Assembly (NCBI GenBank): GCA_965213675.1 | Contig: OZ243916.1 | Coordinates: 768,001-832,000, forward strand | Direction: 5' to 3' | Length of the DNA: 64,000 nucleotides | From: an uncultured Candidatus Binatia bacterium | GTDB taxonomy: Bacteria; Desulfobacterota; Binatia; UBA9968; JAJDTQ01 | In this document: positions 18,464 to 22,342 of the stretch, piece by piece | Layout: each line of letters starts with the position of its first letter | How positions within the stretch are numbered: position 1 is the first letter of the stretch | The notes under the pieces: generated by a model | What the model was told of the DNA's origin: nothing | The model's database searches: none | What the model saw: the letters and a program-made list of their open reading frames with translations, nothing else | Program-made: the position numbers and the translations under genes

Positions 18464-18805
18464 TCAGGTCATCCGCTTCTTGGCGGGAGGTTGTTTCTCG
18501 ATTTCGTCAGGGGTTGGCTTGGCTCGTCCCCCCTGGAGGAGGAACAGGCGTGTTCTGACGTGCTGGCGCCGGTGGTGGTAACTCCAGACGCCGTAGGCGT
18601 TGTCGCTGAGGGTGTGGATTCCCTCGGCTAGGGGTTGGGCGCTCATGTCGCTGCACGTGGTGAACCGGGAGCGTGGGATCCATTGCCGATGGTACGCGCA
18701 GTTGCCGGAGCCTGCGCTCCCGGGCGTGGGCTGCAGGTAGAGACAGTAGTCGCAGGTATTTTCCCAGTCGGGATAACGGCGGCGGCGCTTGGACTGTTTT
18801 GGCAT
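18464..18805 (-). CDS. Small Cys-rich hypothetical protein (possible metal binding)
   Basis: 113 aa with CDYC...CAYH...C; GAGGAG upstream; follows the PDO-rhodanese gene. Confidence 0.6.
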   Translation of the reverse strand: MPKQSKRRRRYPDWENTCDYCLYLQPTPGSAGSGNCAYHRQWIPRSRFTTCSDMSAQPLAEGIHTLSDNAYGVWSYHHRRQHVRTRLFLLQGGRAKPTPDEIEKQPPAKKRMT

Positions 18806-18864: not shown

Positions 18865-19902
18865 CTAACGTTCCACGGGCAGGCCCGCCTCATTCCAGGC
18901 GACAAGGCCGCCGGCCAGGTTGGAGACGTCCGCAAAGCCCGACCTGCCGAGGATGGCCGCGGCCGTGGCGCTTCGCATTCCGGCCCGACAGACGGTGACC
19001 ACCGGGACTTGCTTGTGTCGCTGAATCTCTTCCAGGCGGTTCATGAGTTCACGCAGCGGCACCAGGACGCTGCCGGGCAAGTGGCCCAAGTCCCCGGAAT
19101 ACTCCGTGGGTTCGCGGACATCCACCAATACTGGCGGCTTGCCAGAGGCCAGCATCGCCTGGAGGCCTTCGACGTCCACCACCTGGACCTTCTTGAGCTC
19201 GCCCCAGTCGGGGAAGCTGATCTCGTCGCATCCGAGGGCGGACTGGTTGGGTTGCAGCACATCCTGGATGTTCTGGGGCGGTGAGAGATTGAGGTTGTTC
19301 ATCAGGTCGATAAAGTCCGGACGCGCGCGGTTGGCGAGACGTGGATTGGTGCGCTTCTCCGCTTCGATGGTGGAGGTGGTGTGGCCGCGGTAATCGTGGC
19401 CTGGATGGATCACGGTTTCCCCGGGTAGTGTGAAGAGCTTCTGCGTGACGGAATCGTATTGAGCGCCCGCATCGCCGCCGGCGAAGTCGGTTCGCCCACA
19501 GCCGCCGATGAACAGCGTGTCGCCGGTGAGGACGTGCCCTTCCACCAACAGGCTCATACCGTCAGGGGTGTGTCCGGGTGTGTGCAGGACTCGCACGGCG
19601 AGATCACCCACCGAGAACATCTCGCCGTCTTCCAGGTGGACGTCGACGGCCGGACTGGGCGCCCATTTGTGCATGGCTATGGGTGAACCCACCAGGAAAC
19701 GCAACTGCGGACAACCGCTCAGATGGTCGGCGTGGGTGTGCGTGTCGATGACCAGATCGAGTTCCAGGCGGTGGTAGGCGAGCACGGCCAGGTAACGTTC
19801 GACGTGGGGGTAAAGAGGGTCCACCAGAACGGCTCGTCCCCTGCCCTCGTCGGCTATAAGGTAGGTCTTGCTGCTCTCTCCGTTCAGTTCCCGCAGGATC
19901 AT
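18865..19902 (-). CDS. Persulfide dioxygenase (ETHE1-like MBL fold)-rhodanese fusion
   Basis: THTHADHLSG, HTPGHT, TGDTLFIGGCGRTDF, PGHDY, EKRTNPRL; C-terminal DVREP..GHLPG..VCRAGMRS..GGLVAW. Confidence 0.93.
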   Translation of the reverse strand: MILRELNGESSKTYLIADEGRGRAVLVDPLYPHVERYLAVLAYHRLELDLVIDTHTHADHLSGCPQLRFLVGSPIAMHKWAPSPAVDVHLEDGEMFSVGDLAVRVLHTPGHTPDGMSLLVEGHVLTGDTLFIGGCGRTDFAGGDAGAQYDSVTQKLFTLPGETVIHPGHDYRGHTTSTIEAEKRTNPRLANRARPDFIDLMNNLNLSPPQNIQDVLQPNQSALGCDEISFPDWGELKKVQVVDVEGLQAMLASGKPPVLVDVREPTEYSGDLGHLPGSVLVPLRELMNRLEEIQRHKQVPVVTVCRAGMRSATAAAILGRSGFADVSNLAGGLVAWNEAGLPVER

Positions 19903-19980: not shown

Positions 19981-21138
19981 TTAGAAGTAGCGCCATAGCC
20001 ACCATTTTTCGAACAGGACCTTGCTCCAGTAGATCATCCGGGAGGGTCCCCAGGACCGTGAATCGGTGGCGCCGAAGGGCGGCCATCCCTGAGGGTACGT
20101 GGTGCGGTTGGCGGCGGCGCGTCCCGCGCCGCAGGAAAGCAGTCATATGGTGTGCAAATGAAGGGTGGACAACTCCCCTTCCCCGGTGATCTCCGCCACC
20201 AGGTTGTCCGCCACCACGTCCGCTTCCTGATGCGCCACTCCGCCCGCCTTGGACGCGGGCATGTTGGCGCAGTCGCCGATGGCGTAAACGTTCTCCCACT
20301 TGGTTTCCAGGGTGTCGTAATCCACCTGGATGCCGGCTTCGTTGTCCACCAGTCCACAGTCGTAAAGCACCCTGGAGGGCCGGTGCGGCGGCACCATGAA
20401 GAGCAGGTCGTAGGACAGCTCATAGCCGTACAGGCCGTGGACGCGCTTCTTCTCCGGGTCGATGGACTGGATGACGAAGTCGTAGTGGATGGTGACGTTG
20501 CGTTTCTTGCTCTGGGCGTCCATCCACACCGACGGCATGTGTTCCTCGCCCGCGGGCTCAGGCTCGCGGGTAAAATACTGGATGTCCACCAAGTCGCGGA
20601 TGTTGCGTTCCTTGAAGTAGCTGTCCAGCATCCACTGGGCCTCGTACGGCGCCGGCGGACAGCGGTAGGGGCCCAGCGGCACGCCCACCATCACGCGCCC
20701 TTCGCGGAAGCTCTCGAGGCTGGTCTTGAGCCGCAACGCGGCGTCCATTTCCCAGGGATGATGCGCCCCTTCGGCGAAGCCGGGAAGCAGGTCGGGTCTC
20801 ACTTCCAGGCCCAGCGAAACCACAAGGTAGTCGTAGGGGATGGCCGTGCCATCCAGAATCACCTGCTGGCGGCCGGGGTCGATTCCCAGGATCTCCGCCT
20901 GAAGGACCCGGATGTTGCGCTTCTCCAGGCGCTTGAGTTTGCGGGATATGTCCTCGGGCCGGCGCTGCCCGACCATGAGGAACAGGAAGGCGGGCATGAA
21001 GACGTGATCCGTCCGGCGGTCGATGAGGGTGATGTCGTGGTCCGCGCCGAGAGCGCGGCCCAGCTTGGTGGCCGCGACCACCCCGCCGCTCCCGCCTCCG
21101 AGGACGACGATCTGTTTCCTTCCGTTATGGTAATGCAT
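19981..21138 (-). CDS. sqr: Sulfide:quinone oxidoreductase family flavoprotein, 385 aa, with an in-frame TGA (20143-20145) read as probable selenocysteine
   Basis: GGGSGG FAD motif, CPPAPYE, AIGD, KAGGVA. After HTI-TGA the frame continues LLSCGAGRA...GPSRMIYWSKVLFEKWWLWRYF-TAA, the typical SQR C-terminus. Confidence 0.85.
20114..20132 (-). promoter_or_regulatory. Putative bacterial SECIS element
   Basis: GCGGCGCG-GGA-CGCGCCGC starts 10 nt after the UGA; perfect 8-bp stem with a G-starting loop 18 nt downstream of the UGA. Confidence 0.7.
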
Positions 21139-21159: not shown

Positions 21160-21369
21160 TCAGGAAGCGTCTCGCTGCCGCCGCCTGGCGCGCAGAGCGA
21201 GCCCCTTGAGATTACGCATCCGCCGGTCGCGCCACAAGCGCTGTTCCTGCCGGCCCTCGTCGGTCAGCTCGGATTCAAATCGTGAAGTGCCGCGGATCAG
21301 GAGCAGCACCAAAAGGTCGGAACACGCCTTGAGGCGCTCCGCAAACCATGTGAGGAGTCCGCCGGACAT
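21160..21369 (-). CDS. Short hypothetical protein
   Basis: MSGGLLTWFAERLKAC... fills the gap between the DapA-like gene and sqr; no recognisable motif. Confidence 0.35.
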   Translation of the reverse strand: MSGGLLTWFAERLKACSDLLVLLLIRGTSRFESELTDEGRQEQRLWRDRRMRNLKGLALRARRRQRDAS

Positions 21370-21376
21370 GGCCGCG

Positions 21377-22342
21377 TCAACGGAGGAACGTGTCTTCCTG
21401 GGCAAGCTGGACCGCGGCCTGATCAAAGGCGACCTCGTCCGGTTCGCCATCCCCCAGGATGCCGATCTGGCTCAGGAACTGGCCGATCTGCGCGTGATCC
21501 CGCGGGCTCACCGGCGAGTACGGCCGCGCCGGATCCCCGATGTCCACGCCGAAATGCTTGAGGGCCGACTTCATGATCGGGGGCAACCCGTAGGCGCCCC
21601 ACTTGCCTGGGAAGAGCGTGAAGCAACGTTGCCAGTAGCGCGCCTTGTCCACATCGCCATCCCGGAAAGCCCGCACCACCCGCGCGCCGATGCGTGTTCC
21701 CGGCGGCGGCATGGTGGCGCCGGCGCCTCCCATCATGAGCGTGGTCAACAGCGGCTGCATGGTGGTGAAGTAGTTGGCTTTGCCGGCAAGCTGAATCTGC
21801 TCGATGAGTCGGGTGATTTTGGTAATGTCCCTCGAGCTTTCCTTGAAGTAGTCCACCTTGTTCAGCTCGCTCAGCCGCACGAATGCGTCGAGGGGCGGGT
21901 CGGCGCCCGGACCGGGGTTGTGATAGGCGACGATGGGCAACGGACTCGCCGATGCCACCTCGGTGAAGAACTGCACCAGATCCGAGATGGTCGGTTGTCC
22001 GCCCCAGGGACGAATGGGCATCAGCACCTGAATCAGGTCGCCGCCCACGGCTGCGGCGTGCTCGGCCAGATCCAGGATGGTGTCGATGGAGTGACTGGAG
22101 GCCCCGAGGATGACGGGCACGCGCTTGTTGACGATTTCCGTGGCGCGCCGCATCACTTCCTTGCGATCAGCAAGCGAGAGGACCGTGTATTCCGACGCTT
22201 CCACCGCGGCGATGGAGACCGCGTCGCAATCGGCCACGAGAAACTCGATCTCGCGCGCCAGGCCGTCGTAGTCCACCTGCCCGTCGTCCGTGAACGGGGT
22301 CAGGGCCGCGCCGATGATTCCTCTGATGGGGCTAGCCAGCAT
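21377..22342 (-). CDS. Dihydrodipicolinate synthase/N-acetylneuraminate lyase family protein
   Basis: ALTPF.DDGQVD, PVILGA, YHNP, Schiff-base Lys in YFKESS. Confidence 0.88.
   Translation of the reverse strand: MLASPIRGIIGAALTPFTDDGQVDYDGLAREIEFLVADCDAVSIAAVEASEYTVLSLADRKEVMRRATEIVNKRVPVILGASSHSIDTILDLAEHAAAVGGDLIQVLMPIRPWGGQPTISDLVQFFTEVASASPLPIVAYHNPGPGADPPLDAFVRLSELNKVDYFKESSRDITKITRLIEQIQLAGKANYFTTMQPLLTTLMMGGAGATMPPPGTRIGARVVRAFRDGDVDKARYWQRCFTLFPGKWGAYGLPPIMKSALKHFGVDIGDPARPYSPVSPRDHAQIGQFLSQIGILGDGEPDEVAFDQAAVQLAQEDTFLR

Follow-up and report, generated by a model that had tools for sequence, protein, structure and literature searches.

A predicted selenocysteine form of a sulfide:quinone oxidoreductase-family flavoprotein retained across an order of Candidatus Binatia

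Introduction

Does an in-frame TGA end a flavoprotein gene of an uncultured Candidatus Binatia bacterium, or is it read as selenocysteine (Sec) at a catalytic position? The gene, a member of the sulfide:quinone oxidoreductase (SQR) family, lies in a 64,000-nucleotide stretch of DNA (the window; positions 768,001 to 832,000 of the forward strand of contig OZ243916.1, assembly GCA_965213675.1), and coordinates given without a contig refer to this window. An earlier sequence-only reading proposed that the TGA encodes Sec at residue 332 in place of the second catalytic Cys of SQRs, in a U-x-x-x-C context and with a hairpin just downstream acting as the Sec insertion sequence (SECIS). Site homology, conservation of the TGA, the hairpin, and the presence of sel genes support that proposal. 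We consider it highly probable that the locus encodes a 385-residue, membrane-associated selenoprotein of the SQR family in which UGA is decoded as a catalytic Sec332, a change independent of the known Sec-SQR family NF049943 and fixed across the order. Based on the comparative sequence evidence, we have high confidence that the selenoprotein gene is genuine, U332 almost certainly takes the place of the more C-terminal Cys in the redox-active pair, with C160 as its partner, and an SQR-type function is likely.

The sequence-only reading had suspected that SQR was missing from the list of bacterial selenoprotein families, but it is already there. A Sec-SQR was predicted computationally in 2025 (deep-Sep) and curated as NCBIfam NF049943 (type III SQR, selenoprotein subtype), although the deep-Sep paper names the protein only as an NAD(P)/FAD-dependent oxidoreductase. 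A table in a 2026 review lists a Sec-SQR family with the motif HxxU, citing deep-Sep (PMC13188914). This kind of selenoprotein is therefore already known as a computational prediction, and only the clade described here is new. Among the matches listed in searches of the literature on SQR selenoproteins or Binatota selenocysteine, we found nothing on this clade, and for prokaryotic selenoproteins only the 2026 review.

Results

On the minus strand, an open reading frame (ORF) runs from an ATG at 21138 to the TGA at 20143 to 20145, giving a 331-amino-acid product that ends in HLHTI. The same frame then stays open for 53 codons (LLSCGAGRAAANRTTYPQGWPPFGATDSRSWGPSRMIYWSKVLFEKWWLWRYF) until a TAA at 19981 to 19983; the sequence-only reading had described both correctly. 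Translated with TGA as U, the full gene (19981 to 21138, minus strand) encodes a 385-residue product, referred to as P0001, with matches to Pfam Pyr_redox_2 (PF07992; 83.8 bits) and FCSD_central (PF21706; 36.3 bits), the latter named for flavocytochrome c sulfide dehydrogenase (FCSD). The product has the features of an FAD-binding, two-dinucleotide-fold flavoprotein with an SQR/FCSD central domain and both redox-active Cys positions. A GGGSGG dinucleotide (FAD) binding motif at residues 14 to 19 (21082 to 21099, minus strand) is supported by the Pyr_redox_2 match and by column conservation, and the CPxAPYE motif noted earlier is present as CPPAPYE, which holds C160 (codon 20659 to 20661, minus strand). 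TGA is the usual stop in the window, where 20 of the other 31 long nonoverlapping ORFs terminate with it, and an alternative genetic code (code 4 or 25) was therefore rejected.

Residue 332 falls at the position of the second catalytic Cys of SQRs, as had been proposed. Human SQOR ranked first in a phmmer search of PDB sequences (115.6 bits), and its alignment to the read-through product pairs LHTIC(U)LLSCGAGRA with YTSCPLVTGYNRV and CPPAPYE with KCAGAPQ. By chain arithmetic, with residue numbers taken from PMC11039317, U332 and C160 correspond to the two cysteines of the human SQOR Cys201-S-S-S-Cys379 trisulfide, with C160 equivalent to Cys201 and U332 to Cys379. We aligned 139 sequences with MAFFT, consisting of P0001 (with C entered for U), two full-length relatives (P0006 and P0019), and representative-library matches of at least 300 amino acids. 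The residue-332 column holds Cys in 116 of the 138 other sequences; 16 have another residue or a gap, 5 end just before the column, and 1 ends far earlier. P0006 and P0019, both labeled Candidatus Binatia in NCBI records, differ from P0001 and from each other at this site: P0006 (68% identical) has Cys (HTIC), and P0019 (64% identical) has Asn (HDLN) while retaining the CPPA Cys. This Asn form (P0019/P0276) may be catalytically altered.

In a 68-sequence alignment, C160, G14, and G19 are invariant, G16 and G18 are conserved in at least 90% of sequences, and position 332 is Cys in at least 90% (Sec here). An AlphaFold2 model built from this alignment has a mean predicted local distance difference test (pLDDT) score of 94.5 and a predicted template modeling (TM) score (pTM) of 0.93. 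In this model, a strand at residues 329 to 337 spans U332 and is followed by strands at 340 to 347 and 359 to 366 and a helix at 367 to 384 (pLDDT of ~97), so that a 331-residue product would miss part of the sheet and the terminal aromatic helix. This single aromatic-rich helix, encoded 3' of the UGA (19987 to 20040, minus strand), is presumed to anchor the protein in the membrane.

Foldseek searches of the PDB placed SQRs first (human, Acidithiobacillus ferrooxidans, and Aquifex aeolicus; TM-scores of 0.85 to 0.86), followed by FCSD flavoproteins (0.82 to 0.83) and type II NADH dehydrogenase (NDH-2; ~0.75). Human SQOR (6oi5 and 8dhk; TM-score of 0.85) aligns at both catalytic cysteines, but it is mitochondrial, only 21 to 22% identical, carries Cys rather than Sec, and has a longer C terminus. 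The SQRs of A. ferrooxidans (3t2z and others) and A. aeolicus (3hyv) share the two-Cys layout at TM-scores of 0.85 to 0.86 but are 22 to 27% identical and ~40 residues longer than P0001. In bacterial SQRs the C-terminal helices are membrane helices, and type I SQRs have a third Cys near the FAD. The FCSD flavoproteins (1fcd, 3vrd, and 5n1t) share the FCSD_central match. FCSDs are periplasmic and have a cytochrome c subunit and a signal peptide, whereas no signal peptide was seen in the P0001 sequence and no cytochrome gene was seen adjoining the locus. The only tie to one of the SQR types I to VI is a subthreshold match to the type III model NF049943.

The TGA and the tail behind it are conserved well beyond this genome. 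Across 41 related genomes, every full-length match has exactly one TGA, and in the 36 loci that we read base by base (L022 to L057, the window's own included) ATA-TGA occurs at the same place with a 53-codon tail in 36/36. For the whole order the analysis covered 123 genomes, including four flagged as unpublished (G397, G358, G361, and G378). A match at an E value of ≤1e-60 was found in 106 and was absent from 17, and in 101 the match extends across residue 332 and contains one in-frame TGA. The other five with matches (G389, G373, G363, G408, and G409) have only partial ones that end before residue 332. Where the sequence-only reading had proposed comparing relatives with TGA and TGC at this site, no sense codon at residue 332 was found among the covering matches in these 123 genomes at this threshold. 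Two of the partial matches (G389:C18:81002-81958 and G373:C105:3672-4625) end at residues 322 to 323, before the Sec site, without an internal stop. In a phylum-wide sample of 301 genomes, only 6 had a match at an E value of ≤1e-60: the genome of the window itself, four Cys forms (39 to 41% identity), and a member of the NF049943 clade with a TGA (34% identity).

Purifying selection acts on the tail much as on the gene body, with dN/dS values of 0.02 to 0.16 for the 53 tail codons and 0.04 to 0.19 for the preceding 120 codons (pairwise Nei-Gojobori estimates against ten orthologs, two comparisons being saturated). No conserved start codon of the tail's own was found among the 36 orthologous loci. 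Two features exceed chance, namely the homology of the tail, which matches the C termini of Cys-containing SQR homologs, and the conservation of the TGA and hairpin core in 36/36 loci. The codon directly 5' of the UGA (20146 to 20148, minus strand) is ATA (Ile) in 36/36 orthologs, whereas another Ile column uses ATC in 32/33, and the invariant ATA may reflect a context requirement for Sec insertion. The U-x-x-x-C context did not hold up. Codon +4 (C336) specifies Cys in 28/36 orthologs, the others having Leu, Tyr, or Phe, and we rejected UxxxC as a redox motif as C336 is unconserved outside the genus and part of the families referred to here as f2 and f3. Two RNA libraries labeled sponge metagenome (X20 and X21) contain contigs of a relative that is ~91% identical across the gene; such contigs cannot show expression.

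The perfect hairpin that had been noted ten nucleotides after the UGA was found at 20114 to 20132 (minus strand), as an 8-bp stem with a GGA loop, GCGGCGCG-GGA-CGCGCCGC. Its conserved core (20115 to 20131), derived with RNAalifold from 35 distinct sequences, is a 6-bp stem, C-GGCGC/GCGCC-G, with the loop N-G-G-N-C; the window's genus has two extra pairs, giving the 8-bp stem and GGA loop. The core contains 6 pairs with none broken, and the spacing from UGA to loop is 17 to 18 nt with a minimum free energy (MFE) of −9.9 to −17.0 kcal/mol in 36/36 loci. The bacterial SECIS (bSECIS) model, as quoted in PMC13188914, has a loop of 3 to 9 nt, typically N1-G-[G/U]-N-N2, with a G in the first two loop positions, a stem of 4 to 16 bp, a UGA-to-loop distance of 16 to 37 nt, and an MFE of ≤−7.5. 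All four features of that model agree with the conserved hairpin (loop of 3 to 5 nt of the form (N)GG(N)(N), stem of 6 to 8 bp, spacing, and MFE). Within the stem, third codon positions that are free to vary are fixed (GGC in 36/36, CGC in 36/36, and GCC in 33 with GCT in 3), whereas Gly, Arg, and Ala codons just outside it vary freely. These fixed positions support an RNA structure but stop short of proof.

The machinery for Sec insertion had been named earlier as something to look for, and selA, selB, selD, and a tRNA-Sec (the selC product) are all present on the window's contig (C1), with the three protein-coding genes side by side and all four over curated cut-offs. Scores are 592.7 bits for selA, 378.6 bits for selB, 377.3 bits for selD, and 75.2 bits (Rfam) for the tRNA-Sec. 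ARAGORN assigns the tRNA the anticodon tca, and it has an 8-bp acceptor stem, a 5-bp T stem, a long extra arm, and G73. SelA is over the cut-off in 110/123 genomes of the order. The selD gene (G000:C1:2717463-2718389, locus L018), which lies outside the window adjoining selA and selB, itself has one in-frame TGA, indicating a Sec-containing SelD. A second, identical tRNA-Sec is found at G000:C4:3174-3264 (L002), where the upstream flank is 98.6% identical to that of the first (L001, C1:323217-323307); C4 is probably a strain-variant or duplicate contig. The contamination estimate for the genome is 8%.

Although P0001 and NF049943 share a superfamily and fold class, we rejected membership of the window's clade in that family based on score, tail length, and tree. 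P0001 scores 259.9 bits against the NF049943 model and does not reach the cut-off of 525, compared to 667 bits for a read-through member (L061) and 662 bits for a Cys-form member (L105). The members were reached through P0170, a truncated NF049943 protein of 330 amino acids that scores 525.3 bits over profile positions 1 to 330 and ends just before the residue-332 column. It led to 80 loci in metagenome-assembled genomes labeled Desulfobaccales, Syntrophobacterales, and Desulfobacula, of which 70 were parsed. The codon counts for these loci, which leave out two spurious rows (L076 on the minus strand and L139), are 39 DGHAT-TGA and 33 TGC/TGT, with tails of ~80 to 98 amino acids. The two groups have in common an H-x-x-U motif with Sec at the corresponding site (HTIU here and HATU there), a SECIS immediately 3' of the UGA, and the existence of relatives with Cys. 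They differ in sequence (~35% identity), in tail length (53 amino acids here and ~92 there), and in the hairpin, which in NF049943 is CGAGAAGG-GGUC-CCUUCUCG. Furthermore, Sec and Cys forms are mixed among the parsed NF049943 loci, whereas TGA is fixed in the order studied here. The NF049943 hairpin has a mean MFE of −16.9 in TGA forms versus −7.9 in Cys forms. One TGC form, L105 (labeled Desulforhabdus sp. TSK), retains the SECIS-like hairpin found in its relatives with TGA (MFE of −13.0), which fits a recent Sec-to-Cys change.

In a FastTree phylogeny of 155 rows, the window's clade (the Sec forms, P0122, the Cys form P0006, and the Asn form P0019) has a long stem with full support and lies well away from the NF049943 clade, from which many Cys lineages and starred branches separate it. 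Identity to the closest homologs beyond the clade reaches no more than 41% (39% for database proteins and 39 to 41% in genomes). The truncated homologs P0155, P0180, and P0264, the last labeled Planctomycetales, end at the residue-332 column, where they may carry a TGA. P0006 and P0019 are nested within the clade, where support is weak, which suggests later Sec-to-Cys and Sec-to-Asn changes.

The genes from 24964 down to 18464 are all on the minus strand, encoding in order an amidohydrolase, a heme-oxygenase-like protein, a cyclase, a DHDPS-family protein, a small ORF, the SQR, a fusion of a metallo-β-lactamase (MBL) fold with a rhodanese, and a four-Cys protein. The MBL-rhodanese protein (18865 to 19902; 345 amino acids; Pfam Lactamase_B and Rhodanese) is persulfide dioxygenase-like in its first part. 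We compared synteny in 35 other loci, comprising the genus (22), family f2 (5), and family f3 (8). The MBL-rhodanese gene lies directly 3' of the SQR gene on the same strand in 21/22 genus loci and ~1.4 kb further on in L028. The small ORF directly upstream (21160 to 21372) has a tblastn match on the same side and strand in 34/35 loci, with a conserved core of ~50 amino acids (...SD...TSxFxxELTxxGxxEQxxWRxxRxRxLxGL...) at residues 28 to 78 of a 96-amino-acid ORF (21160 to 21450) whose likely start is M27. Downstream of the SQR and dioxygenase-like genes, the 113-amino-acid protein with four conserved Cys (18464 to 18805) has tblastn matches in 23/35 loci from all three families, where ENTCxYC...GNC...TTCS with its CxxC...C...C pattern is kept; it might act as a partner that binds metal or sulfur. 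No Pfam family was found for either small protein. The DHDPS-family gene is present in 34/35 loci and the cyclase gene in 33/35.

Discussion

The human enzyme offers a template for how a Sec at this position could work. In the cycle proposed for human SQOR, as set out in PMC11039317, HS− opens the trisulfide and the Cys201 persulfide engages FAD, the solvent-exposed Cys379 persulfide gives up its sulfane sulfur to an acceptor, and attack of the Cys379 thiolate on the flavin adduct then restores the bridge. The residue equivalent to U332 is by this mechanism a leaving group, a sulfane-sulfur carrier, and a resolving nucleophile (PMC11039317). By analogy, SelB and tRNA-Sec would decode the UGA as Sec, directed by the downstream SECIS hairpin, and in the resting enzyme U332 and C160 would be joined by a Se-S(-S) bridge. 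HS− would open this bridge, the resulting C160 persulfide would pass electrons to FAD and then to quinone, and U332 would hold the sulfane sulfur as a selenopersulfide before passing it to an acceptor, with the rhodanese domain of the neighboring dioxygenase-rhodanese protein, a small thiol, or sulfite as candidates. The U332 selenolate would then attack and the bridge would be re-formed. Sec is by established chemistry a better leaving group, carrier, and nucleophile than Cys, and selenium may speed the leaving-group, sulfur-transfer, and nucleophilic steps.

Several observations weigh against parts of this interpretation. A 53-codon open frame is unremarkable by itself in a window of 65.7% GC, where open frames are long for that reason. 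The 66-nt stretch that holds the hairpin folds no better than shuffled sequences (z of −0.02; 94/200 shuffles fold as well), and we dropped hairpin stability as evidence and relied on conservation instead. Covariation was also unusable as proof of the stem, as the 35 distinct sequences contain no compensatory double changes and only 5 one-sided, wobble-preserving ones, and the peptide GAGRAA is itself conserved, so that part of the nucleotide conservation of the stem is at the protein level. The existence of Cys and Asn members of the clade (P0006 and P0019) means that Sec is not indispensable everywhere. The MBL-rhodanese gene is convergent in 3/5 family f2 loci and was not found within the ~2-kb flanks of the 8 family f3 loci. 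By TM-score, the FCSD flavoproteins match nearly as well as the SQRs. The SQR assignment, which we regard as likely, rests on fold, motifs, and context, from which we infer the use of quinone and sulfide, and selenium insertion, substrates, and chemistry are likewise inferred, with the mechanism drawn by analogy with human SQOR. Finally, a separate origin from NF049943 was examined with an approximately unbiased (AU) test on a 65-row IQ-TREE phylogeny, with groups that we named in knowledge of the first tree; a joint clade costs 116.5 log-likelihood units (p-AU of 5.6e-7). As the AU test rejects a common clade, the Cys-to-Sec change is probably convergent, and two separate changes at the same residue are the most economical reading.

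A simple stop codon would explain the public gene calls, in which nearly all of the best 120 database matches are 329 to 331 amino acids long and lack the catalytic residue and the presumed membrane helix. The downstream frame and hairpin would then be incidental, in DNA where open frames and GC-rich hairpins are common, and either the 331-residue protein would be the functional product or the gene would be a pseudogene. We find this hardly credible, since the tail evolves under purifying selection, completes the β-sheet and terminal helix of the fold, is homologous to the C termini of Cys forms, and lacks a conserved start codon of its own, while the TGA is retained at the catalytic Cys position across three families. 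An error of sequencing or assembly at the codon is less credible still, to the point of being negligible: the same TGA occurs in 101 independently assembled genomes. The sequence-only reading had advised checking the codon in reads, and contigs (not reads) of two DNA runs (X1 and X2) match 20104 to 20643 with 0 differences, although these runs, which share 95 to 98% of the sampled words, may themselves represent the source sample. Decoding of the UGA as Cys by a tRNA of the ReC type, or as another residue by near-cognate read-through, is compatible with Cys being the homologous residue. ReC tRNAs differ from tRNA-Sec in the discriminator, and the only UCA-anticodon tRNA found has tRNA-Sec architecture and G73. 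Together with selA and a Sec-containing selD, present here and conserved in the order, and a hairpin that matches the SelB-dependent bSECIS model, this makes such recoding quite improbable.

A different question is whether a genuine selenoprotein of the SQR/FCSD fold might catalyze another reaction, such as polysulfide or persulfide reduction or selenide oxidation, or use another electron acceptor. The wide miss of the NF049943 cut-off, the distance to the nearest outside homologs, the short tail with its single terminal helix, and the close FCSD matches all leave room for this, and the conserved neighbors (the DHDPS-family protein, the cyclase, and the two small ORFs) are not classic sulfur genes. 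On the other hand, the protein agrees with solved SQRs in its two redox residues, in the FAD motif, and throughout the fold, the FCSD-like signal peptide and cytochrome partner are missing, and a persulfide dioxygenase-like/rhodanese gene is next downstream in the genus. We regard a non-SQR reaction as unlikely but worth serious consideration, and a Sec-containing SQR is the interpretation that we favor.

These proteins are poorly represented in current annotations. All 15 members listed for a 128-member protein cluster are 331 amino acids long, with one called simply "FAD/NAD(P)-binding oxidoreductase." One database protein, P0007 (398 amino acids; 92% identical over 75% of the query), crosses the TGA by shifting frame shortly before the Sec site, apparently through an indel in the metagenome contig. 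As the public proteins are truncated and the NF049943 model misses them, metabolic reconstructions of this order carry a broken sqr.

Two SQR lineages with Sec at one position provide a natural Cys/Sec pair for finding the turnover-limiting step, with P0006 as the Cys form here. A broader scenario, which we put forward tentatively and with more doubt than conviction, is that an order-wide fixed Sec arose convergently at an SQR-like sulfur-carrying site, works through a selenotrisulfide/selenopersulfide cycle, and forms a distinct sulfide-handling module with the four-Cys and ~60-amino-acid proteins, in a recurrence that possibly includes Planctomycetales-labeled and further truncated homologs. 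If true, recurrent convergence on the same residue would mark the rate- or damage-limiting step in SQR catalysis. Sulfide detoxification in this group would hinge on selenium supply.

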